The position numbers and the translations under genes are program-made. Below, in pieces: positions 6,754-17,513 of a stretch of DNA of 29,170 nucleotides (position 1 is its first letter; each line of letters starts with the position of its first letter). The stretch spans positions 1-29,170 of the IMG/VR virus record IMGVR_UViG_3300046003_005477. One strand, given 5' to 3'. Origin of the DNA: a virus. Lineage: Duplodnaviria > Caudoviricetes. A model generated the notes under the pieces. That model was not told where the DNA came from. It saw only the letters and a list, made by a program, of their open reading frames with translations, and did no database searches.

Positions 6754-7938
6754 ATGCACGTCGTAAAATACAAGTCCGTTTCCGTGAACGTCTATCCATG
6801 GCGGCACCCATCCGGAAGAGAGTATTGGCGGTTCAAGCAGGGAGGCAAGGACGTGACCCGCAGCACGCTCGAAAAAGCCAAGCGGGACGCGAAGAAGCAC
6901 GCTCAGACGATTTACCGTGGCAGTCTGGATCTAAACATCCTGGAAGCGGATGAAATCCGGAAACTGCAACGCATTGTCGAGGCGGGGGCACTCCAGCACG
7001 TCGAGGAGTTCCTGCTATGGCATTCCCGGAAAGCACCTAAGAAACTCGCCATTGACGCTTACACCGAATTTCTCGCTTTGAAGGAGAAGAACGCCGGTCG
7101 TTCGACTCAGAACGTCCGAACCATCCGAAAGCACGTCAAGCCGTTCATCGACATCCACGGGAAATCCGACCTCGCATCCATCACCGTGAAGGACATCGAG
7201 GATTATATGGAATCCAACCCGAAAAACAAAAACCGGACCCGCCGCAACATCAGGGCGTCGCTGGTGACGTTCTTCCGGTGGTGCCGACTCAGGGAATACC
7301 TCCCCGATGAACGCACGGCGGCGGAGAAGGCGGAGATCCCGATGGTGACTGACACGGTGCCAGAAACCTACACGCCCGACGAGCTGCGCGTCTTGCTGGC
7401 CAATGTTCGCCCGGATTTCCGGGCATGGCTCGCGGGCGCCGCGCTGGCGGGCATCAGGACCGATGAGATTTGCCCGATCGCCGGGAGTCGGAAACCTCCG
7501 CTGGATTGGAGCGACATTGACTTCGAGCGCGATCAGATCGTTGTAAGCCCTGCCACGGCCAAGATGAAGCGCCGGAGGGTTATTCCCATGTGCGCGGCAC
7601 TCAAGGCGATCCTGCTGCCGCTCAGGAAGCCCCAAGGCCCCATGCACGCTACAATCGCCCCCACCCGGAGCGACGGCAAGAAGATCGTGGCAGAAACCGC
7701 CCGGCTGGGCGCATTCATCGGCGGATGGAAGGACAATGCCCTGCGGGCATCTTTCATTTCATTCCGGTGCGCCCTGAAAGGAATGGGCGTCACGGCCATG
7801 GAGGCCGGAAATTCGGAGGATGAAATCAAGAAGTCCTACCTGGATGCCAAGAGTCCCGCCGAAGCGGAGGCTTGGTTTTCAGTGTCCGCGTTTTCGCCGA
7901 TCACCGAACATTTACCGAACACAGCGAAAAAACCTTGA
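6754..7938 (+). CDS. int: prophage tyrosine integrase
   Basis: AGIRTDEI (R), AKMKRRR (K), NALRASF, AGNS, KSY (Y); followed by attP. Confidence 0.9.
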   Translation: MHVVKYKSVSVNVYPWRHPSGREYWRFKQGGKDVTRSTLEKAKRDAKKHAQTIYRGSLDLNILEADEIRKLQRIVEAGALQHVEEFLLWHSRKAPKKLAIDAYTEFLALKEKNAGRSTQNVRTIRKHVKPFIDIHGKSDLASITVKDIEDYMESNPKNKNRTRRNIRASLVTFFRWCRLREYLPDERTAAEKAEIPMVTDTVPETYTPDELRVLLANVRPDFRAWLAGAALAGIRTDEICPIAGSRKPPLDWSDIDFERDQIVVSPATAKMKRRRVIPMCAALKAILLPLRKPQGPMHATIAPTRSDGKKIVAETARLGAFIGGWKDNALRASFISFRCALKGMGVTAMEAGNSEDEIKKSYLDAKSPAEAEAWFSVSAFSPITEHLPNTAKKP

Positions 7939-8274: not shown

Positions 8275-8453
8275 GGCTTTTTCAGTTTATCCCGGCAAAC
8301 CACCCTCCCGGCTGCGATTTCTCGGAGCAATGCGCGCCAACTCGGCCGGCCGGAATAGATTCCGGCGCGTGCGGTGGCGTTGCATTTTCTGGAGATCGCC
8401 AGCAATGATTTGATTTCGTCGGCGTCGAGGTCGATGGTGTGGCGTTTTTTCAT
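8271..8453 (-). CDS. small hypothetical protein (possibly RHH-like)
   Basis: ATGA overlap with the intI stop. Confidence 0.55.
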
Positions 8454-9415
8454 GCGGTTCTTCGTAAAGGGATAATATTTCTCGCTACTTCCGCATCCAG
8501 CGGGCTATCCACCGTCGTCTTGCCGGCGGTATGCAAGTAAAGCTGTGTTGTTTCCAAACTCGTATGGCCGAGCTGTTCTTGAATTGTTTTGATGTCCACC
8601 CCATCGCGCAGTAGGCCGGTGGCATAGCTATGGCGGAGCGCATGCGGGTTCACCCGTTGCGTGATGCCTTGCAGTTCCGCCGCCTCCTTTAGCGCCGTCA
8701 CCAGTCGTTTGTCAGTCGCATGCCAACGATCCGTCCCATGGACTTTCTGAGATGGAAAAAGCCAATACCATGGCAGCGTCCCAAAGGTTCGGCGGCCAAA
8801 CTTGCGCATCAGACTTTCCTCATTGTGCGGGCAGATGATGCCGCTTGCGCGGTCGCGCTCCCATTGCATCCGGCAGGCCATGATTTGTTGTTCCAGATCC
8901 GCCACCAGGAATTCAGGAATCCGCAGCGCGCGGGACTTCCCGCCCTTGGCCTCATAAATTGTCAACACCCGATCCTCAATCCGCACATCCTTCAGCCGCA
9001 GCGTCAGCATGTCGCTTTCGATCCGCATGCCGGTTCCTGCCAGCAGTCCCGCTTGCAATCGCGGCACCCTTGGCATGGTTTGCATCATGCCGAGGATTTG
9101 GCGCATCGTGAGCACCGAGCGCATTGGCTTCGATCGGTTGCGCTTCGGAAGATCAAATTCCCCAAACTCCTTCAGCAAAACTTTTTCATAGAAAAACTTC
9201 AGTGGATTCAAAGCGTGCCACACACTGTTCGATGAAATCTTTTTCACGCTGGCCAGGTGGTTCAGATAGTCTTGCACCCCGGTGATTTCTCCACGCTTCA
9301 TCATCCCCGCAAACTCCGCGATCGTCGGCCCGTAGGTTTTTCGAGTATTCCGAGCCAGCCCCGCATTCAGCGCAGCCGTTTCGAAAGCCTTCATTACTTC
9401 TTCAATCGTTCTCAT
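8450..9415 (-). CDS. intI: integron integrase
   Basis: Catalytic R (GMRIES), K (AKGGKSR), HALRH, LGH, Y (TQLYLH); IntI-specific insertion SLMRKFG...WYWLFPS...RWH; C-terminal SPLD; adjacent attC array. Confidence 0.92.
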
Positions 9416-9444
9416 CGGATCGGATTTGTGGTTATAGACACTTA

Positions 9445-9470
9445 TTGGTTCCTATAATTAACTGTTCTGT
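9445..9470 (+). other. attI-1 (array 1)
   Basis: TAATTAACT-GTTCTGT, 49 nt from the intI start; its R box is complementary to R'' ACAGAAC of the first attC. Confidence 0.8.
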
Positions 9471-10183
9471 GTATGAAATGGGAGCACGTCCTGCGCGAGA
9501 CGAGCGGCGGCGATTTCGCAATAGCGTTCCTCCCGCTCGATGAGCACGGCGCGTTTCCCGAGATTCTTTGCGGCGTGTCCCGTGGTGCCGGAGCCTGCCC
9601 ACGGGTCGAGGATGGTTTCCACGTTCCCCGCTTGCTGGATGCACCATTGCATCAGCCCCAGCGGCTTTTGCGTCGGGTGTTGCGGGTTGCTGTCCGAGCG
9701 GCATCGGTGGTGTTTTGCTGGCCCTGGGATATTCGTGAAGGCGATTTCCGCACTGCTTCGCGTTTCCAAGTGCTCCACATGAGGCTTTTGCCACATCAGG
9801 AACTTTTTGTGAGGCGGCAGCAGGTTGCACAAGTAGTTCATTCCCCAGATGATTTGCAGGGTGGCTTTCTCCATTGCGGCGGCGATGGCTTCCCCGTCGA
9901 TTTTTTCATCATCCCAGTTTCCTTTCCTCGCCATGCCATAGCGGCGAGTCGTCCTCGATCCGTCGAGAGCGTTCATTCCATACGGCGGATCTGTCAGCAG
10001 GAGGTCAAAGCTTTCCAGCATGGGCATGATTTCCCGGCAGTCTCCGTGATAGATCGTCACGTATTCGTCGCGGTAGAACGGCACCGGCAACACAGAACAA
10101 GGCATCGCTCCTAACAGCCCACCGCCCCGCAGTTCAGCGGTGGCGTGGCTAGGAGGCTCAGGGAGTGGCGGAGTGGCGTTCAC
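9458..10183 (-). CDS. cassette 1: DNA methyltransferase (N6/N4, beta class)
   Basis: TDPPYG, HPTQKP, LDPWAGSGTT. Confidence 0.9.
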   Translation of the reverse strand: MNATPPLPEPPSHATAELRGGGLLGAMPCSVLPVPFYRDEYVTIYHGDCREIMPMLESFDLLLTDPPYGMNALDGSRTTRRYGMARKGNWDDEKIDGEAIAAAMEKATLQIIWGMNYLCNLLPPHKKFLMWQKPHVEHLETRSSAEIAFTNIPGPAKHHRCRSDSNPQHPTQKPLGLMQWCIQQAGNVETILDPWAGSGTTGHAAKNLGKRAVLIEREERYCEIAAARLAQDVLPFHTQNS

Positions 10184-10211
10184 GGGCTGTAGGAGGATTT
10201 ATGCGTTCTGG
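10092..10211 (+). repeat. attC 1.1
   Basis: R'' ACAGAAC; L boxes CTCCTA(A)CAGCCC / GGGCTGTAGGAG with an extrahelical base; R' GTTCTGG. Confidence 0.85.
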
Positions 10212-10936
10212 CCACGGAATAGATCGCCTTGCGCGAGTTCGCGCTTGATCCGTTCCACGGCGTTTTTGAAGTGTTCCGGGTCTTTCTCGATGCCAATGGC
10301 TTTCCGCCCGGTGCGGATTGCGGCGATGATCGTTGACCCGCTGCCCATGTATGGGTCGAGCACGGTTGCACCTTCCGGCACCTTGGCTTTGTCCATGCAC
10401 CACGCCATGAGCGCCACGGGTTTCTGCGTCGGATGAACGCGGGTCATCGTTTCCCCCGCCATGCTCAAGTCACGCTTGCAGTAGATTCCATGCCCGCCCT
10501 TCATCCACGCTTCCTCAGCATCACTCAGGAACGATCCGAAAGCTGCATCCATTCGCTTGATCCAGATCAGTTTGGTTCCCACTGGCAAGCGTGCGCCGAA
10601 GTGATTGGAGCCGAAGAGAACCACCTTTTCCCATGCGAGCCAAGGCGACGGGTCGAAGGGCTTGTCATCGTCGATGATGCCTTTCGCGTAGATCCTTGGA
10701 TTCTTCGGGCGGCGTTTTTGGCTGGCTTCACTTCCACCCTTGAATCGGGCGTTTTCACACGGCCATGCCATCCCATATGGCGGGTCACTTATCACGGCAT
10801 CCACGCCTTGCAGCGTCGGCGCAATGTCCATGCAGTCGCCCAGCCACACCTCAACCCCAAGAGCCAGAACAAGACGCTGCATGGAACGCCGAGGAGCGTC
10901 CTTGTCGAGTTCGGGCTGTAATTGGTCGGCGTCCAT
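10199..10936 (-). CDS. cassette 2: DNA methyltransferase (N6/N4, beta class)
   Basis: SDPPYG, HPTQKP, LDPYMGSGST. Confidence 0.9.
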   Translation of the reverse strand: MDADQLQPELDKDAPRRSMQRLVLALGVEVWLGDCMDIAPTLQGVDAVISDPPYGMAWPCENARFKGGSEASQKRRPKNPRIYAKGIIDDDKPFDPSPWLAWEKVVLFGSNHFGARLPVGTKLIWIKRMDAAFGSFLSDAEEAWMKGGHGIYCKRDLSMAGETMTRVHPTQKPVALMAWCMDKAKVPEGATVLDPYMGSGSTIIAAIRTGRKAIGIEKDPEHFKNAVERIKRELAQGDLFRGQNA

Positions 10937-10952
10937 GAGCTAGGCGTTCGTC
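10864..10952 (+). repeat. attC 1.2
   Basis: R'' CCAGAAC; CATGGA(A)CGCCGA / TCGGCGTCCATG; R' GTTCGTC. Confidence 0.9.
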
Positions 10953-11254
10953 TGATAATGAATGCACCCAAAGTCCGGCCCCGTGATGAGTTCGCCTGTG
11001 CAACCTCCTTCGTCGCACGTCGATACTCCGTCGCGCCGCATCTTGCGGTTGTCGCGTTTGCCGTAAGTCGGCTGAATCACCATTGGATGCTGGCAGTATT
11101 GAAGTTGGATTCCGTCTTCCGTGTGACCAGTTTGCCACAACTTACCCGGTTCGCCCCAGAAACGACAAGACGAACAAGTCACTCCTGGACAACCCTCACC
11201 AGTCTCCTGTTTGAGTTCGGTTTCGGGCTTCGATGTATCATTTTCGGTTTGCAT
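10940..11254 (-). CDS. cassette 3: Cys-rich hypothetical protein
   Basis: CSSCRFW...YCQHP...TGPDFGCIHY. Confidence 0.7.
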   Translation of the reverse strand: MQTENDTSKPETELKQETGEGCPGVTCSSCRFWGEPGKLWQTGHTEDGIQLQYCQHPMVIQPTYGKRDNRKMRRDGVSTCDEGGCTGELITGPDFGCIHYQTNA

Positions 11255-11301
11255 AGTGTTTTAGTGGTTAGCGGTGAGGGTGCCAGAGCTAGGCGTTCAT
11301 G
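11169..11301 (+). repeat. attC 1.3
   Basis: R'' GACGAAC; CTGG(A)CA(A)CCCTCACC / GGTGAGGGTGCCAG; R' GTTCATG. Confidence 0.85.
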
Positions 11302-11305
11302 GCCT

Positions 11306-11494
11306 TCACTTCGGGCGTTTTTTGGTGGCACGGAGTTCCCGAAGAGCGCCTTCCTGCATCCAACGATGCGGGACGTTCCGTCCGGTTTCCCATGCTGTGA
11401 TTTGCCCCTTGCCGAGGCCGAGCAAGGCTTCCGCCCCGGCCTGTGTCAGGCCGAGGCGGTCGCGCTCGCTTTTAAGTTGGTCGGCGAAGCTCAT
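11306..11494 (-). CDS. cassette 4: XRE-family HTH protein
   Basis: LKSERDRLGLTQAGAEALLGL...AWETGRNVP. Confidence 0.8.
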   Translation of the reverse strand: MSFADQLKSERDRLGLTQAGAEALLGLGKGQITAWETGRNVPHRWMQEGALRELRATKKRPK

Positions 11495-11688
11495 GCTGTT
11501 TTGACGGTGACGCTTTCTCCGTTTGCACCTTCGACCGTGACGGACGTTGGGCGGTTTTGGATTCCGGTGATCTTGGAGAAGATCTTGTGCTTGCCCTTGG
11601 AGTCGAAGCCCTCGGAGGCGAGGAGTGAGCGGAAGCCGGCGGCGGTGTGCTTGGTGACTTGCTTGGCGATGTAGGATTCGAATTTCAT
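11491..11688 (-). CDS. cassette 4: small hypothetical protein
   Basis: MKFESYIAKQ...; ATGA overlap with the HTH gene. Confidence 0.6.
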   Translation of the reverse strand: MKFESYIAKQVTKHTAAGFRSLLASEGFDSKGKHKIFSKITGIQNRPTSVTVEGANGESVTVKTA

Positions 11689-11734
11689 TTTCTTGGTTGG
11701 TTTGTTGTTGGTGTTGCTCAGTGGCAACACGCAC

Positions 11735-11785
11735 AACTTACGAGATTCTCGCACAAGGTCAATATTTATTTTACGAGATTCTCGT
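11735..11785 (-). promoter_or_regulatory. cassette 4 internal promoter with two palindromic operators
   Basis: TTGACC-16 nt-TAAGTT on the minus strand; CGAGA-N-TCTCG palindromes at 11741-11751 and 11774-11784. Confidence 0.65.
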
Positions 11786-11810
11786 TTTTATTCGGGCGTC
11801 CATTTTCGGC

Positions 11811-11897
11811 CATGAACAAGACGCTGATGACAAGCGCCGGAAGCGCCCTGTCAGGAATCGGAGTCTTGCGCGGCGCTGTCATAGCTCAGCGTTAGCC
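11811..11897 (+). repeat. attC 1.4
   Basis: R'' CATGAAC; ATGACA(A)GCGCCG / CGGCGCTGTCAT; R' GTTAGCC. Confidence 0.9.
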
Positions 11898-12121
11898 TCA
11901 GAGATTTCATCCCACAGGGAGGGCGGTAGCCATATGTCGTTATCCTTTGCCTCAAAGGCGTCTCCCGCCGTGAAGACGAGTCTGATTTCCCTCCCATCAA
12001 TGGACCGCAAGAACTCGTCCAGATACTCCCGCTCGTCGAGCGGGAGGGCGGCGCGTTCGTGTGGTAGTGCTTCGTCGTATAGGGCGATCAGCCCGGTTTT
12101 CATTCGTGCGTTCATAATCAA
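11879..12121 (-). CDS. cassette 5: hypothetical protein
   Basis: 80 aa ORF filling the cassette; its stop lies inside attC 1.4. Confidence 0.65.
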   Translation of the reverse strand: MIMNARMKTGLIALYDEALPHERAALPLDEREYLDEFLRSIDGREIRLVFTAGDAFEAKDNDIWLPPSLWDEISEANAEL

Positions 12122-12125
12122 GAAA

Positions 12126-12217
12126 GGCTAACAAGTGGATGCTGGCAACGGCGGGAAGTTGCCTGTTTGGTTTATTCGGAGTCCAGCGCCCGCCGCGCCA
12201 GATCCTTGTCGTTCTAC
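12126..12217 (+). repeat. attC 1.5
   Basis: R'' GGCTAAC; CTGGCAACGGCGGG / CCCGCCGCGCCAG; R' GTTCTAC. Confidence 0.85.
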
Positions 12218-12252
12218 CGAGAAGGGATCGGACCTTCCCGCGTAGATCGTGA

Positions 12253-12480
12253 TTACCAGCGTTTGCTTTTCTTCGGGCCGCTCATGAGTGCTGCGATCAG
12301 CGCGATGATTCCCACGATTGCGATGATGCCGAGAACCAGTCCAAGGCTGATCAAGATCGGCGACAATACCCACCACCACGACCATGCAATGACATTGCAG
12401 AGTTTCAGGGTGATGAAGACGATGGTGAGGAGACCGGCGAAGCCGATTCCTCCTGATGTGCTGCTATTGGTGTTACTCAT
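12253..12480 (-). CDS. cassette 6: small phage membrane protein
   Basis: GGIGFAGLLTIVFITLKL..VIAWSWWWVLSP motif; the frame stays open upstream into attC 1.6 (to 12534). Confidence 0.8.
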   Translation of the reverse strand: MSNTNSSTSGGIGFAGLLTIVFITLKLCNVIAWSWWWVLSPILISLGLVLGIIAIVGIIALIAALMSGPKKSKRW

Positions 12481-12511
12481 TTTTTCGGTGTTTTGGGGTG
12501 ATTCGGAAGAG

Positions 12512-12613
12512 GTAGAACAAGGGAGTGATGGCAACGGGAACTAGCCGTCGATGTCGTTTGAGTTATCGGAGTCCTGCGCGGCTAGTTCCCGCGCCATACC
12601 CCCAGCGTTCTGC
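12512..12613 (+). repeat. attC 1.6
   Basis: R'' GTAGAAC; ATGGCAACGGGAACTAGCCG / CGGCTAGTTCCCGCGCCAT; R' GTTCTGC. Confidence 0.9.
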
Positions 12614-12798
12614 GGAAAAGTATCGCGCCACGCCCAGACATGGGCGGCGTGTTTCCGTTGTGCTTTTGAGATTCCAGACGAGTCCGTGAATGTTACAGGG
12701 TCATCCATTCTTTCGCGCCAGTAGGCGATCCAGATGGAATGCCAAAGACGCAGAACAAGTCGCGGCAGGACAACCGCCCATTTGCTTTTCAATTTCAT
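12541..12798 (-). CDS. cassette 7: hypothetical protein
   Basis: Starts in attC 1.7 and stops in attC 1.6. Confidence 0.55.
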   Translation of the reverse strand: MKLKSKWAVVLPRLVLRLWHSIWIAYWRERMDDPVTFTDSSGISKAQRKHAAHVWAWRDTFPQNAGGMARELAAQDSDNSNDIDG

Positions 12799-12846
12799 AT
12801 CGTTTTCCCTTCATGCGCGGCGGTGCCTGCGCTTTTTGCGTTCGGC
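12750..12846 (+). repeat. attC 1.7
   Basis: R'' GCAGAAC; GCAGG(A)CA(A)CCGCC / GGCGGTGCCTGC; R' GTTCGGC. Confidence 0.88.
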
Positions 12847-13205
12847 AGAGATGAAGATCCGCAGATGAAGCATGTCCCATCCATGGCTCGGCTGAAGTTG
12901 CAAACATGTTCGCGCAATTTGCGCTCGCGTTGTTCCGTCACCGTTTCTGGTTGGCGGATTTTCACCCACTCCCCGCATTCCGGCCCACGCTCCTTCCAGA
13001 CTTGGAGTGAGCGCATGACTTGTCGTGCTTCAACTTTCTGCGCCATGTATCGGCTTTGATCGTCATCCGCGCCGTAGGCGAGCACCTGCATAATTTCCCA
13101 GCGGAATGACGGAGCGCCACGCCACCAGTAGAATCCGGGAGCATCGGGCCAGCCGAACAAGGCATCGCTGCCAACCGGCACTATCTTTTCAGTTTCTTTG
13201 CTCAT
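12795..13205 (-). CDS. cassette 8: hypothetical protein
   Basis: WPDAPGFYWWR motif; starts in attC 1.8 and stops in attC 1.7. Confidence 0.65.
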   Translation of the reverse strand: MSKETEKIVPVGSDALFGWPDAPGFYWWRGAPSFRWEIMQVLAYGADDDQSRYMAQKVEARQVMRSLQVWKERGPECGEWVKIRQPETVTEQRERKLREHVCNFSRAMDGTCFICGSSSLPNAKSAGTAAHEGKTI

Positions 13206-13249
13206 GGTCGTTTCATTTGCTGCCGGTGGCAGGATTTTTGTCGTTCATT
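13152..13249 (+). repeat. attC 1.8
   Basis: R'' GCCGAAC; CTGCCA(A)CCGGCA / TGCCGGTGGCAG; R' GTTCATT. Confidence 0.88.
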
Positions 13250-13291
13250 TCACTGGAAGAGAGGCGGGGGAAGAACCCCCGCCCGGTCGCA

Positions 13292-13585
13292 TCATGCGGC
13301 ATACCATCCGCCATTCCGCTTCGTGAACCACAGCACCCGCATCGAGCGGCTGACGATGGCGTAGCGGTTTGCGCCGTCGTAGTAGCGGACTTCGCCGCCC
13401 TCATTGCGCTTGTCCAAGTGGCCAAGGTCTTTGGCACCAAGAGCGCGGCGGGCTTTCTCTTGCTTGTCCGAGTGGCGATCCATTTCCTTGAGTTGCTTGT
13501 CGGTGGCAAAGATTGTTCCGATTCCGTTTTCTTGGATACGGTTTCCGTTGATGATTGCTGAGTTGATGATGGTTTCGAGTTGCAT
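13292..13585 (-). CDS. cassette 9: hypothetical protein
   Basis: 97 aa ORF divergent from an HTH gene. Confidence 0.6.
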   Translation of the reverse strand: MQLETIINSAIINGNRIQENGIGTIFATDKQLKEMDRHSDKQEKARRALGAKDLGHLDKRNEGGEVRYYDGANRYAIVSRSMRVLWFTKRNGGWYAA

Positions 13586-13686
13586 TGCAGTGGTTGGTTG
13601 ACGGCGTTACTCTGTCCGCATTGCAGACACTTGGCAAGGATTATTTTCTGCATTGCATACTTTTTTTTATCGGGTATGGTTTGCCC

Positions 13687-13866
13687 ATGACCTTCGCCGA
13701 ATCGCTTGCCGAGTTTTCCGCCGCCCAGATCGTCGCCGCCCTTGGATGTCCCCGACAGACGGCCTATGCGTGGCTTGATGGCACGCGCCAGCCCCCCGAA
13801 TGGCAGCAAGCGCTTTTCCTTGCGGCGATCCGTCGGCACGCGAAGAGAAGAGATGCCGGAAGATGA
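13687..13866 (+). CDS. cassette 9: small HTH protein
   Basis: AAQIVAALGCPRQTAYAWLDGTRQPP; TTGCAT...TATGGT promoter just upstream. Confidence 0.7.
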   Translation: MTFAESLAEFSAAQIVAALGCPRQTAYAWLDGTRQPPEWQQALFLAAIRRHAKRRDAGR

Positions 13867-13870
13867 CGGC

Positions 13871-13992
13871 AGAGAACAAGACGGTGATCCCGATGGAGAC
13901 CCGCCCCGAGTCAGGCTTTCAGTGGTGGCTATCATGATTTTTGGTGTGGCTGGCTGGCGCTCCCGTCTCCACGGGATACCTCTGCGTTCGGC
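13871..13992 (+). repeat. attC 1.9 (last of array 1)
   Basis: R'' AGAGAAC; ATCCCG(A)TGGAGAC / GTCTCCACGGGAT; R' GTTCGGC. Confidence 0.85.
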
Positions 13993-14379: not shown

Positions 14380-15986
14380 ACGCCATGGCCCTTGACCCAT
14401 CCGATTACGATTTCGAGCCTGAAAACGCCCAACCACCCAAGGACGACCTGCCGGATTACAAACCGCCATCTTCACCCCTCCGCCTAGTTCAGCCCGCCAC
14501 CGAGCCAAACCCGCCCCCGCATTCGGTAGGAAGTGAGAAGTCTATCCTCTCCCTCTACTGGGCATGGCCGGAAACTCGACCAGCGATCCAGCAAGCAGGC
14601 GTTTCCGAGGATCATTTCTATTCTCCCGGAAACCGGGTAATATGGAATGCTCTCGCAGCTCATCCCGACGCCGACCTCCCGTTGCTCGCTCAACGCCTGC
14701 TCGACTCCGGTCAACTCGACCGGGCAGGCGGGGCTGCATCCTTGGCTGATATTTACAGTTATGCGCTGCTCCCTCAGTGTCTTGACCAGCATCTTCAGAT
14801 CCTCGCCGAGAAATCAGCCGCGCGGTCAGCTATGACAGCATCGCGTAAGCTCATCGACGACCTCGAAGCCAGTCCCGGCGAGTCCGCAGAAATCCTCTTG
14901 CGCGCCGTCACCAGCCTCAAGGACATCGCAGACGCTGCTGGGTCCACGTCCCCGTTACTCGCTCGCGCCTACGCTCTTCAATACTCACCATTCGCCCGAC
15001 CTCCCGCCGACGAGGTTCTCATGCAAATCGGCCAGGCACCCATTGCCGCCCGTGGAAACCTCACCGTCCTGCAAGGCAAAGCCAAGGTCGGCAAGTCTGC
15101 GGTCGTCGCCAGCATCCTCGGCGCAGCCCTGCGTGGCAGATTCCAAGCCAAGGGCGACACGCTGGGCATTGACTGGACAGCGGATCGCCACACCGGCGCG
15201 GTGATCCACCTCGACACCGAGCAATCCCCTGCCGACTGGTGGGCGCTCGTCACCCGCGCATTCGCCCGCAGCGGCAACAAACAATTCCTCGACCGGTTGG
15301 TTTCGATTCCTCTCGTCCAGTTCAGCCGGCGCGATCGTTTGGCGATCCTTGAATCCGTCATCGCCGACCAGATCCGCCAACGCGGCACGGTGGATCTGGT
15401 CATCATCGACGGCGTGGCCGACCTCTGCACCAGCCCAAACGACGAGGAGGAGTCTTTAGAGCTGGTCGCTAAACTCATGGCAATCTGCCACAAACACAAC
15501 GTGGCGATAGTGTGCATCCTCCACGAAAACCCCGGCACCGATCAGGGAAAAACTCGTGGGCATCTCGGGTCAGAACTCAACCGCAAAGCCTTCGCCAACC
15601 TCCGAATCGACAAGGACAAGGACGGCGTTTCGACTCTTTACGGCACCGATATGCGCAAGCGGGACATCCCTCAGAATCAGGGCGTTTGCTTCGTCTGGAA
15701 CGATGAGGAACACATGCACACGGTCATTGGATCAGCCCGTGAAGTTGAGGCCGAGCGCAACTCCGAGAAGTCTCAACGGTCGAAATCCCGCAAGCTGGAT
15801 CAGGACCGCGCAGGGCTCGAAGACATCTTTGGAGATGAAGAATCCATGGCATACTCGGAGCTTTGGCCTGCCGTCGTGGACCGATTCGCGGTCAAGGAGC
15901 GCATGGCCAAGAACAAAGTTTCGGAGTGGATCAAGGCGGGAGTCGTCGTCAAAAACGCATCGGGGGAATATGAAATCGGCCCGTGA
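14376..15986 (+). CDS. replicative helicase: DnaB-like N-terminal domain plus RepA/AAA_25 ATPase
   Basis: PPHSVGSEKSIL, GKAKVGKS Walker A, HLDTEQ, VIIDG, RGHLGS motifs. Confidence 0.85.
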   Translation: MNAMALDPSDYDFEPENAQPPKDDLPDYKPPSSPLRLVQPATEPNPPPHSVGSEKSILSLYWAWPETRPAIQQAGVSEDHFYSPGNRVIWNALAAHPDADLPLLAQRLLDSGQLDRAGGAASLADIYSYALLPQCLDQHLQILAEKSAARSAMTASRKLIDDLEASPGESAEILLRAVTSLKDIADAAGSTSPLLARAYALQYSPFARPPADEVLMQIGQAPIAARGNLTVLQGKAKVGKSAVVASILGAALRGRFQAKGDTLGIDWTADRHTGAVIHLDTEQSPADWWALVTRAFARSGNKQFLDRLVSIPLVQFSRRDRLAILESVIADQIRQRGTVDLVIIDGVADLCTSPNDEEESLELVAKLMAICHKHNVAIVCILHENPGTDQGKTRGHLGSELNRKAFANLRIDKDKDGVSTLYGTDMRKRDIPQNQGVCFVWNDEEHMHTVIGSAREVEAERNSEKSQRSKSRKLDQDRAGLEDIFGDEESMAYSELWPAVVDRFAVKERMAKNKVSEWIKAGVVVKNASGEYEIGP

Positions 15987-16104
15987 ACGCCTAAATCTTC
16001 CCACCATGACCTTCTCTGCCACTCTGCCGCGCCTTGCGCTTCCTAACGAAAAACCCGCTCCGAACTCGGAGCGGGTCATGGTTGTGTGCGGCGTCTTGTT
16101 GAGT
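15982..16104 (-). repeat. attC 2.2 (last of array 2)
   Basis: Minus strand: R'' ACTCAAC, ACCATGACC / GGTCATGGT stem, R' GTTCACG overlapping the helicase stop. Confidence 0.75.
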
Positions 16105-16113
16105 GTCTTTGGG

Positions 16114-16347
16114 TTAGGCGAGCGGTGCGAGCGCACGGAGTGCCAACGTGGACGGCATCCGGCCAGACTCCCAACCCTCGACGGTGCGGCGGGAAACCCC
16201 GATCTCGTCTGCGAGCTGCTGAGTGGTCAATCCGGCCTTCTCGCGGATCGCTTTGATGCCGGGGCCGTAGTCCATGACGGACCCGTCATCCGCGAGGATG
16301 ACGGGCTGGCCATAGGGACTGGATGGGTGATGGGTGGTGACTCTCAT
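16114..16347 (-). CDS. cassette 2.2: XRE-family HTH protein
   Basis: IKAIREKAGLTTQQLADEIGVSRRTVEGWESGR. Confidence 0.85.
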   Translation of the reverse strand: MRVTTHHPSSPYGQPVILADDGSVMDYGPGIKAIREKAGLTTQQLADEIGVSRRTVEGWESGRMPSTLALRALAPLA

Positions 16348-16350
16348 GGC

Positions 16351-16704
16351 TTAGGCAAAAAGGCTATTGGCTTTGTGATCGTCGGCCTCAAACGCTGCCT
16401 TGATCTCATCGGCATTGGCTTCGGCTTCGGCCCACTCGACAAAATCGGAGTAAGCGGCCTCGCCGATCATGCAGTTGGTAAAATTGTGGGACATGCGCTC
16501 ATTGTTGCCGTCGTAGATGTCACCGTCCTCGTCCAACGAGATGTATGCGATATCACTTGCTCCGCACTTGATGAGGACCGCAACGCTGCTGTCGTTGTAT
16601 CCCTGGATGCACCAAGTCCAGTCGCCCTTGAGGGACTTGACCCAGTTGCGGGAGCCGTAACGAGGGGTGGAGGTGGTCTTGCTGATTTTGATGGTCGTTG
16701 TCAT
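16351..16704 (-). CDS. cassette 2.2: hypothetical protein
   Basis: MTTTIKISK...; preceded by an A/C-rich leader and a TGCGTAAAA / TTTTACGCA inverted repeat. Confidence 0.65.
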   Translation of the reverse strand: MTTTIKISKTTSTPRYGSRNWVKSLKGDWTWCIQGYNDSSVAVLIKCGASDIAYISLDEDGDIYDGNNERMSHNFTNCMIGEAAYSDFVEWAEAEANADEIKAAFEADDHKANSLFA

Positions 16705-16835
16705 GGTCTTGGTTGTTTTGGTGGTTTGGGTAGTCGCGTCGTGCAACTGGGAAGACAATACGCACGGTGCGTAAAAACAACAAGCTTTATTTTACGCAAA
16801 ATGCGTAATTCTTTTTTCCGCCCCGAAAGGGGTCC

Positions 16836-16924
16836 ACTCAACGCTGATGGTCTGGGACGGCGGACGTTGGACGCCGATTCCAAGTGAGACGTTCCCCGCC
16901 GTTCCCAGCACCTACTTGTTCAGC
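16836..16924 (-). repeat. attC 2.1
   Basis: Minus strand: R'' GCTGAAC; CTGGGA(A)CGGCGG / CCGCCGTCCCAG; R' GTTGAGT. Confidence 0.88.
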
Positions 16925-17034
16925 TCTTTTGGGGTGGTGTGAAAATAAACGAAGAAATATTGAAAAGCGTGTTGACGGAATCAAAAGGAAAGGGTATCTC
17001 TATTCACGTAAGCGAAAGCGAACCCCAAAACAAA

Positions 17035-17310
17035 ATGACAACCACAATCGAAATCGGAACTCAGGTCGAAAGAATCGCCAGTGACTACACCAACGGACGC
17101 AAGGGCGAGGTGATCGAAATCAACGAAGGCCGCGCCCGCGTCGCTTGGAGCGACTCACCCCGCACATGGGTGAAGTTCTCAGCCCTCAAGGTGATCGACC
17201 AAAAAGTGATCGCCGGGCCATGGAGCGAAACCCCAAACATGAAGAGCCACAAAGCAGCCCGCACCGTGACTCTCGCAGACGGAACCACCTACCGGGAATA
17301 TCGGAAATGA
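17035..17310 (+). CDS. cassette 2.1: SH3/KOW-like small protein
   Basis: IEIGTQVER...GEVIEI...ARVAW...TWVKFSALKV; TTGACG-17 nt-TATCTC upstream. Confidence 0.65.
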   Translation: MTTTIEIGTQVERIASDYTNGRKGEVIEINEGRARVAWSDSPRTWVKFSALKVIDQKVIAGPWSETPNMKSHKAARTVTLADGTTYREYRK

Positions 17311-17483
17311 AACCAACAAGAGGAGGCCCCCGAAAGGGGGCCGGGCGGAAGCCGACAGGCCGCACCGTCACAACGTCCAGCATCAACCTACCGCCCGAGC
17401 TATGGGACAAGCTGGATGCACTACGCGGGGAACTCACGCGCTCGGCATGGATCGCCGCCAAGATCAAGAATGCACGACTCTGA
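17307..17483 (+). CDS. cassette 2.1: ribbon-helix-helix (CopG-like) protein
   Basis: RGGPRKGAGRKP...SINLPPELWDKLD...RSAWI; ATGA overlap. Confidence 0.75.
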   Translation: MKPTRGGPRKGAGRKPTGRTVTTSSINLPPELWDKLDALRGELTRSAWIAAKIKNARL

Positions 17484-17489
17484 ATATCT

Positions 17490-17513
17490 GCTGAACAGTT
17501 AATTAAGCCGACC
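17490..17513 (-). other. attI-2 (array 2)
   Basis: Minus strand TAATTAACT-GTTCAGC shares 13 bp with attI-1; its R box is complementary to R'' of attC 2.1. Confidence 0.75.

Follow-up and report, generated by a model that had tools for sequence, protein, structure and literature searches.

A phage integron in which bottom-strand cassette genes cross the recombination site in one shared reading frame

The cassette genes of a phage integron were found to lie on the bottom strand, to cross the recombination site on an in-frame AAC (Asn) codon and to stop in the neighbouring att site, which we consider likely (with a probability of about two in three) to serve as a translational junction, terminating one protein and setting the ribosome to work on the next gene. 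Every cassette ends in AA, the C that completes the codon being the first base of each att site, where the AAC frame is closed by a stop within ~25 codons. Cassette orders differ among sister phages, and the tails beyond the Asn are swapped. The DNA analyzed (the window, the whole stretch of 29,170 nucleotides) derives from a lake phage, whose host is probably a member of the Verrucomicrobiota, and carries an integron with intI, attI and nine attC sites.

The integron and its arrays

The integrase scored 194 bits (E 3.5e-57) against TIGR02249, under the cut-off of 265, and is therefore regarded as a divergent member of the IntI family. Its best PDB match was IntI4 (2a3v, E 4.9e-47), with the integron-specific insertion aligned, and the catalytic residues R, K, HxxR, H and Y are conserved. 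In a quick tree, from which no direction of origin is drawn, it branched apart from 30 chromosomal IntI. Relatives numbered 481 at E<=0.001, with phage arrays in 56 loci; a search of INPHARED returned no close IntI.

In related loci attI occupies an equal position, its GTT preceding the start of intI by 36-56 nt and the sequence switching past the GTT; the short stop seen at attI-1 recurs, and the tails are NS, NSEL, NSKL, NREL and NSELNP. The attC sites are hairpins with AAC/GTT R boxes and extra R''-arm bases, and their polarity signature is that of host chromosomal attC. With intI on the minus strand and the attC top strand on the plus strand, the arrangement is not that of an inverted integron-integrase, and IntI abuts attI-1, which distinguishes the array from a CALIN, where no integrase is nearby. 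The array differs from a canonical Pc-driven integron, in which top-strand genes stop at or before R'', in that its cassette genes are on the bottom strand. A sigma-70 promoter scan of the window yielded no site on the minus strand and three sites, all on the plus strand (4.5 in shuffles).

The putative through-ORF of cassette 9 overlaps both a minus-strand frame (13292-13585) and an HTH-like gene on the plus strand (13585-13866). A second array contains attI-2 but lacks an adjacent intI; a contig switches sequence at the attI-2 crossover, which is spanned by a plus-strand mini-ORF, MHDSEYLL/NS (17470-17502).

Table 1. Features of the two arrays in the window. A slash marks the crossover, and every tail or end given is followed by a stop codon.
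Feature	Coordinates	Strand	Crossover (GTT)	Tail or end	Remarks
IntI-like integron integrase	8450..9415	-			321 aa; divergent, phage-associated lineage
attI-1	9440..9470	+	9464 (G/TT)	NS	stop 9460-9458
Cassette 1 DNA methyltransferase	9458..10183	-	9464	HTQ/NS	PF01555; start inside attC 1.1 (GTG 10183 or ATG 10105)
attC 1.1	10096..10207	+	10205 (R')	NA	R'' AAC 10096
Cassette 2 DNA methyltransferase	10199..10936	-	10205	RGQ/NA	PF01555; ATG 6 nt past start of attC 1.2 stop
attC 1.2	10868..10948	+	10946	NA	
Cassette 3 ORF	10940..11254	-	10946	YQT/NA	104 aa; ATG in attC 1.3 loop; no match in family searches
attC 1.3	11173..11297	+	11295	NA	
Cassette 4	11289..11754	-	11295	M/NA	small gene 11491-11754; HTH gene 11306-11533 (PF13560, own stop); mini-ORF 11300-11289
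attC 1.4	11815..11893	+	11891	NAEL	
Cassette 5 ORF	11879..12121	-	11891	SEA/NAEL	
attC 1.5	12130..12213	+	12211	NDKDLARRALDSE	
Cassette 6 membrane-protein ORF	12253..12534	-			own stop; exception, AAC-frame relay absent
attC 1.6	12516..12609	+	12607	21 residues past Asn	many unrelated genes carry a near-identical attC
Cassette 7 ORF	12541..12798	-	12607	FPQ/NAGGMARELAAQDSDNSNDIDG	ATG overlaps upstream TGA (ATGA 12798-12795)
attC 1.7	12754..12842	+	12840	NAKSAGTAAHEGKTI	
Cassette 8 ORF	12795..13205	-	12840	SLP/NAKSAGTAAHEGKTI	ATG 10 nt past start of attC 1.8 stop
attC 1.8	13156..13245	+	13243	NDKNPATGSK	
Cassette 9 putative through-ORF	13213..13935	-	13243	SEM/NDKNPATGSK	240 aa; from ATGA in attC 1.9
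attC 1.9	13875..13988	+			final site of array 1
attC 2.2	15986..16100	-	15988 (R')	NA	R'' 16100, flank matches cassette start; pair score weak (3.5), under detector threshold
Cassette 2.2 putative through-ORF	16006..16887	+		GPL/NADGLGRRTLDADSK	293 aa; antisense to HTH gene
attC 2.1	16840..16920	-			second array
attI-2	17470..17510	-	17496 (G/TT)	NS	G/TT on minus strand

Reading frame at the crossover and exchange of tails

An initial annotation of this DNA had listed seven ORF ends, at attI-1 and at attC 1.1, 1.2, 1.4, 1.6, 1.7 and 1.8; all were confirmed, each GTT being read as in-frame AAC. Likewise, the sites it had described as uncrossed (attC 1.3, 1.5 and 2.2, and attI-2) do stop the AAC frame. 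Its wording that every crossing ORF uses this frame holds for the ends in the window but is too strong for the arrays of related phages, where 116 of 117 read-through genes do so. Of 178 cassette ends there, one reads through in another frame, eight stop on a TAA that straddles the cut, and a further group stops earlier.

Because longest-ORF calling over-called top-strand shadow frames (30/146 in one set and 36/132, with many ties, in another), a codon model, stop-free bodies and PHROGs matches were used. Loci that duplicate the window or one another (L001, L010, L045, L074, L075, L110, L115, L116, L137, L217 and L218) were excluded from the counts. Beside R', the codon model ranked the AAC frame best for 106 of the 155 unique cassette ends, with a ratio of 106:17:13 over the bottom-strand frames. 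The corresponding ratios were 44:27:61 for R'' and 299:221:318 for 977 internal GTT triplets outside att sites. The frame was thus non-random at R' and random at R'' in the larger set, as the initial annotation had anticipated. The AAC-frame body was free of stops in 88 of 132 complete cassettes (9 and 8 for the other bottom-strand frames; 15, 9 and 7 for the top-strand frames), and in 22/27, 14/22 and 52/83 of three separately ascertained subsets. PHROGs matches were obtained for 28 of 115 AAC-frame ORFs versus none of 35 top-strand competitors; the eight matches among 58 competitors were bottom-strand genes that end at or before the cut.

Maps of two sister loci, L002 and L138, contain shared cassettes in other orders, rearranged at G/TT. 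Five read-through genes have one body with differing tails among the sister phages, diverging immediately past the terminal Asn, where divergence of homologs had been proposed as a check. In keeping with this, free-standing methyltransferase homologs commonly end a few residues short of the Asn position of the cassette copies. Cassette 1, which ends in NS in the window, ends in NAEPSHRDGGQDSAT in L138. In L002, the tail of cassette 5 is NV instead of NAEL, that of cassette 7 is NDKDLARRALDSE and that of cassette 8 is NA. Cassette 2 has three tails across loci, and its C-terminal peptide is predicted to be GQNA behind attC 1.1 versus GQNAKSAGTAAHEGKTI behind attC 1.7. Contig joints also fell at crossover GTTs (9463, 10943, 11298 and 12209): the joint 9463>10946 links attI-1 to the attC 1.2 crossover, 10943>12838 appeared in two runs, and 12209>12606 in all four runs examined.

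The three frames reported at R'' in the window (CS, LVL and LFG) were observed as described, but the accompanying premise that R'' travels with its gene did not always hold. The attC keep their left-hand gene in the L002 comparison; near-identical attC recur on unrelated genes, joined exactly at R'', and an attC 98% identical to attC 1.3 is joined to an unrelated gene in L002.

Stops, starts and alternative explanations

Beyond what had been noted before, the att sites also supply starts, and genes with an early stop are often followed by a mini-ORF that takes up the AAC frame. In counts of attC, here and in the chromosomal control, sites with no neighbour within 2.5 kb were excluded. Of 157 attC, 153 contain a stop in the AAC frame (104 in shuffles; 73 and 95 for the other frames), and one of the remaining four yields a 78-codon tail. 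A start codon was located within -10..+15 nt of this stop in 94 of the 157 (position null 0.29), and an ATGA at the stop itself in 37 (position null 0.012); the ATGA frame is open beyond R'' in 38 of 44 cases, compared with 14 and 14 for the other frames.

Genes stopping 1-60 nt early were assessed in a strict set of 15, which replaces a noisy class of 53 with many misassigned AAC-frame genes. Seven of them have an AAC-frame ATG mini-ORF across the crossover, with none in either of the other frames (p 1.4e-4), although some of the seven may be miscalled genes, since an ATG AAC end creates a TGA in another frame; three are PHROG-confirmed methyltransferases. Cassette 6 of the window is among the eight that carry no mini-ORF. 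As the mini-ORFs keep the frame with no protein to complete, and the next start is placed at the stop, the arrangement points to translational coupling of the ORF-11 type, in which a crossing ORF stops in the neighbouring site near the next start. In structure predictions, the start region was paired no less once the 5' arm had been removed (0.42 vs 0.41); the predicted opening energy fell from 7.4 to 0.5 kcal/mol with a ribosome footprint, a drop largely built in because footprint and start window overlap.

In terms of mechanism, we infer from the genomes that the integrase cuts at AA/C and performs the shuffling. The array would be transcribed towards attI and intI, either together with the leftward genes of the phage or starting at promoters that lie within cassettes. 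On reaching attC in the AAC frame, a ribosome would melt the mRNA hairpin, terminate in the attC loop and re-initiate at the ATG located in that loop. With a single frame in common, any cassette could be combined with any site; a cassette set in a different frame would acquire a tail that is either long or random, and its ribosome would not be passed on, which may be why the shared frame is kept. Since the frames cross on Asn and end inside the neighbouring site, any gene order is likely to give complete, translationally linked proteins.

A rival account, essentially that of the initial annotation, is that stop-less genes need a nearby stop, and that the starts found there reflect the compact gene packing of phages. 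It asks for no more than the observed frame lock and brevity of the tails, and it accommodates the 63 of 157 attC with no ATG near the AAC-frame stop. Yet the ATGA at the stop, the AAC-frame mini-ORFs after genes with their own stop, and the lack of an own stop in most genes are left unexplained, and we judge this account unlikely. The earlier proposal of a frame convention that gives complete proteins with changing tails is supported but incomplete, as the att sites also place the next start.

Alternatively, the frame could be a manufacturing footprint of a cassette-making process that joins attC at the start and stop of a gene in fixed register, so that selection would be unneeded. The ends of cassettes are complementary (80 of 114 match at 5 of 5 positions), many genes with no relation to one another carry one type of attC, and in the methyltransferases att-derived heads replace the native start while the Asn lies 1-4 codons past the motif where many free-standing homologs stop. 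However, the distance between native end and Asn is variable, the frame at R'' is not fixed, and attI, which is not a product of cassette birth, also stops the AAC frame. Moreover, the arrays of Verrucomicrobiota chromosomes, surveyed at a laxer threshold (40 regions, 10 with arrays), show no such register despite similar attC: 45 of 49 genes are forward, the AAC-frame stop occurs in 30 of 52 sites (expected 28.4) and ATGA in none of 52. These host arrays conform to the canonical integron, unlike those of the phages. Such an origin of the frame therefore appears doubtful.

An artefact, either of wrong-strand calls at pseudo-palindromic attC or of long shadow ORFs in GC-rich DNA combined with a detector favouring the AAC frame, is highly improbable and largely refuted, for although these phages supplied the 28 training sites of the detector and one of the search patterns, a plus-strand attI opens the array, attC stay with the left-hand gene in L002, contig joints lie at R', forward genes emerge when this detector is applied to chromosomes, the result holds for loci found without the pattern, PHROG matches lie in the AAC frame, and reversed sequence (1.98 Mb) gave 3 hits versus 231. 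A second attC search pattern returned 2 loci only.

A broader and more tentative proposal is that these phages may use a modular protein-coding grammar on integron hardware. Gene bodies would be start-less and stop-less, each attC would be a module that provides start plus stop and can be reused through exchange at either R' or R'', and even regulatory cassettes would keep a stop-free relay frame; shuffling would rewire a coupled operon and rewrite protein ends, and gene-attC junctions would record cassette birth.

Significance and comparison with known systems

Integron cassettes of the textbook type are promoterless, self-contained genes that point away from attI. In the widespread phage lineage described here, the genes are inverted and the recombination site is part of every predicted protein; recombination would therefore edit protein ends and likely set translation. 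The occurrence of junctions near native starts and stops, and of one attC on unrelated genes, offers sequence-level tests for the question of cassette genesis. Since DNA methyltransferases and further modification genes are abundant in the cargo, the integron may tune phage counter-defence.

A search of the openly accessible literature retrieved no published account of reversed polarity with a frame rule. Arrays of attC in phages, often with DNA methyltransferases, were reported in 2023, and the phage attC recombine with IntI1 (PMC9892861); the text consulted mentions neither inverted gene orientation nor a rule on reading frame, and the lineage presented here has its own IntI and attI. Among known arrays, those of TJE1 and Rctr41k are forward, the genes of P12002L stop short of the site, and two genes of the MW202573 cluster end in PNV before the stop; TJE1, P12002L and MW202573 were read by motif or annotation, their sites having been missed by the detector.

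In class 1 integrons, ORF-11 of attI1 and attC mini-ORFs couple translation (review, PMC8876359). The phage arrays resemble them in having a crossover-spanning ORF, a stop supplied by the neighbour and coupling to the next gene, the last of these as suggested here by sequence arrangement. ORF-11 is a short top-strand leader at attI, whereas here it is bottom-strand cassette genes that cross nearly every site, in one frame. In gcuF1-blaOXA-28 (PMC3375312), a cassette ORF similarly runs through an att site and cassette order alters the protein, but that case is a single forward-strand fusion, in contrast to the read-throughs that stop inside the site in nearly all phage attC. The inverted integron-integrase group, exemplified by Treponema (PMC4889954), shares the co-orientation of intI and cassette genes; there intI is flipped relative to attC, whereas here intI and attC have their usual arrangement and the genes are flipped within the cassettes. 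Finally, the synthetic coding attC of Nivina et al. (2020, PMC7439510) also recombine while encoding peptide. Those sites are engineered linkers; the phage sites are their natural counterpart, bearing a stop and a start in place of a linker.

Cassette genes obey a frame rule at the crossover

Six genes in the window cross the crossover, the GTT end of an att site (R'), and all do so in the frame that takes this GTT, on the attC bottom strand, as an in-frame AAC (Asn), designated here the AAC frame. All of the cassette ORF ends listed in the initial annotation are present in the sequence. The ORF at 13243, considered doubtful there, is an open, putatively coding frame of 240 codons that opens at an ATGA in attC 1.9. 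In cassettes 4 and 2.1, genes with their own stops are followed by AAC-frame mini-ORFs (MNA* and MHDSEYLLNS*). Cassette 6 is the exception, with a stop immediately ahead of the AAC; this sole window cassette lacking a frame relay is absent from the contigs of 4/4 sequencing runs. Two through-frames stay open between a start in the cassette's own attC and the AAC exit, the HTH-type genes of these cassettes lying in other frames; stop-free non-gene frames elsewhere in the window occur at 0.36% (210 codons) and 0.03% (245 codons). No comparable through-frame was present in eight family-confirmed cassettes with genes in other frames.

Features of the window
Feature	Position	Strand	Remarks
ORF	149-928	minus	internal repeats, about 17 and 30 codons
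Phage integrase	6754-7938		followed by copy of tmRNA 3' end
tmRNA and 3'-end copy beside phage integrase	7945-7973 and 21888-22315		3'-end copy is a likely attP
Second tyrosine recombinase (integron-integrase-like)	9415-8450		integron integrase family match, score under family cut-off
attI-1	GTT at 9464		adjoins intI start
Cassette 6	12211-12607
Through-frame	13213-13935	minus
Array 2	15986-17510	minus	shorter; starts at attI-2 (17496), an attI-like site without adjacent intI
Through-frame	16006-16887	plus

Related loci were gathered through integrase searches, attC patterns and methyltransferase searches. With 28 training sites, the attC detector returned 231 matches, versus 3 in reversed sequence; it scores one base past the GTT, and TAA-type sites may be under-counted. 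A codon model, built on 50 non-cassette ORFs and picking the best of six frames, selected the AAC frame beside R' in 106/155 ends (bottom frames 106:17:13). As proposed from the window, such a preference was lacking at R'', the AAC end of attC (44:27:61); internal GTT triplets gave 299:221:318. The final set comprised 178 ends: of the 117 that read through, 116 used the AAC frame; a further 8 ended on a TAA straddling the cut, and 53, a noisy class, were called as earlier stops. Of 132 complete cassettes, 88 had a body free of stops in the AAC frame, versus 7 to 15 for each of the other five frames, and this excess was present in every ascertainment subset. PHROG families matched 28/115 AAC-frame ORFs versus 0/35 top-strand competitors; matches were found in 8/58 competitors, all eight of which stop at or before the cut. 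Family matches of the cargo across loci were mostly DNA methyltransferases, together with PAPS reductase, HNH, Mom-like and Lar-like proteins.

The sites themselves stop the AAC frame in 153/157 attC, versus 104 in shuffles and 73 and 95 in the other frames. An ORF-opening ATG lies -10 to +15 bases from this stop in 94/157 attC, with an ATGA overlap in 37/157. Among genes stopping 1-60 bases ahead of the cut, an AAC-frame ATG mini-ORF spans the cut in 7/15 (other frames, 0). Among 22 loci of related integrases, the attI tail (att-encoded residues from the Asn on) is mostly NS*, NSEL*, NSKL*, NREL* or NSELNP*; a few tails are longer, and one locus has no callable tail. In ten control chromosomal arrays, 45/49 genes were forward, 30/52 sites contained a stop (expected 28.4), and ATGA was found in 0.

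Cassettes rearrange at G/TT and exchange tails

Nine attC follow attI-1, their top strand being the plus strand. The motif AAC...GTT is readable on either attC strand, and the sites could thus have been assigned to the wrong strand, the cassette genes then being forward. Against this doubt, a simple plus-strand attI starts array 1; attC shared with the sister-phage locus L002 keep their left-hand gene, and the sequence switches at the right-hand GTT; lake-run contigs join window positions 9463 to 10946, 10943 to 12838 and 11298 to 11888, as well as 12209 to 12606 in 4/4 runs; and host chromosomal attC of equal AACAAG...CGTT polarity bear forward genes. The recognisable genes of cassette 2.2 sit on the top strand.

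The integrase of L002 is 100% identical to that of the window and its left flank 99.9% identical, whereas the cassette order differs; L002, like the run X16 contigs, has other sequence in place of the array 2 region. Among 41 cassette ends observed repeatedly, seven carried more than one tail. Five of these are read-through genes, diverging after the terminal Asn as anticipated; in the methyltransferase of cassette 2, GQ is followed by NA*, NAKSAGTAAHEGKTI* or NASGDSPPFGG*. Some tails end NA*, reminiscent of degradation tags. The cassette methyltransferases have att-derived heads and a C-terminus of LF, LPF or LPL, 1-4 residues, Asn and the tail, whereas many free-standing homologs start MKPYY and stop at VLPF*, VLAL* or VLF*; some homologs have longer tails.

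The proposal that R'' travels with its gene does not always hold: attC of 95-100% identity occur on unrelated genes, also when the window is compared with L002, and their identity stops at the R'' AAC (the largest such family was enriched by the search pattern used). The methyltransferase of cassette 1 has a different attC in another sister phage, with only the R''-adjacent arm in common, and one contig gives weak evidence of an R''-type joint (13874 to 12516). These swaps may be products of attC x attC recombination on the top strand; the rate of top-strand recombination is low, according to the portion available of PMC5027507. Cassette ends showed 5-base complementarity in 80/114 cases, versus 1/114 with the array partner.

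Proposed relay and its alternatives

We favour a translational relay as the reading of the frame rule, with a probability of roughly two in three. IntI would catalyse the rearrangement, the array would be transcribed leftward, and the ribosome would terminate and re-initiate within the attC loop; modelled attC folding gives a weak hint that the start may be unmasked. That the rule serves completion only is improbable, that it is a footprint of cassette genesis slightly more so, and an artefact is very unlikely.

Integrase, host and comparison with known systems

The window is the entire IMG/VR record (29,170 bases; estimated completeness about half) and includes tRNA-Arg and tmRNA genes. Its integron integrase aligns best with IntI4, integron insertion included, has 481 relatives and, in a quick tree, falls outside 30 chromosomal IntI of Verrucomicrobiota. 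Three relatives (P0028, P0042 and P0048) have 394-397 aa versus about 321, possibly through an N-terminal extension across attI. The host is likely in Verrucomicrobiota, since a species-genome search with this integrase matched only two assemblies, named Akkermansiaceae and Luteolibacter.

The element is a complete integron, yet not of the canonical Pc-driven type. CALIN was rejected as its class, as was the inverted-integrase type, as far as the latter is described in the part of PMC4889954 at hand. Qi et al. (PMC9892861) described attC arrays in phages, the frame rule being absent from the available portion of their account. The rule is not universal among phages, because TJE1 (Qi et al.) has forward genes, the Rctr41k array is forward, and genes of P12002L (Qi et al.) stop early. 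No account of reversed polarity together with the frame rule was found in the literature searched; further comparison literature comprised excerpts of PMC3375312, PMC8618304, PMC7439510 and 10.1101/2022.09.11.507474. In MW202573, a phage of Qi et al., two of the annotated genes have a PNV* terminus located at attC-like sequence. The published attC cluster of this phage (2150-3444) appears reversed in polarity, and two further genes contain Asn-led tails. The window integron may be likened to the ORF-11 coupling, as outlined in the accessible part of PMC8876359, with coupling in the window probably extended to the cargo genes.
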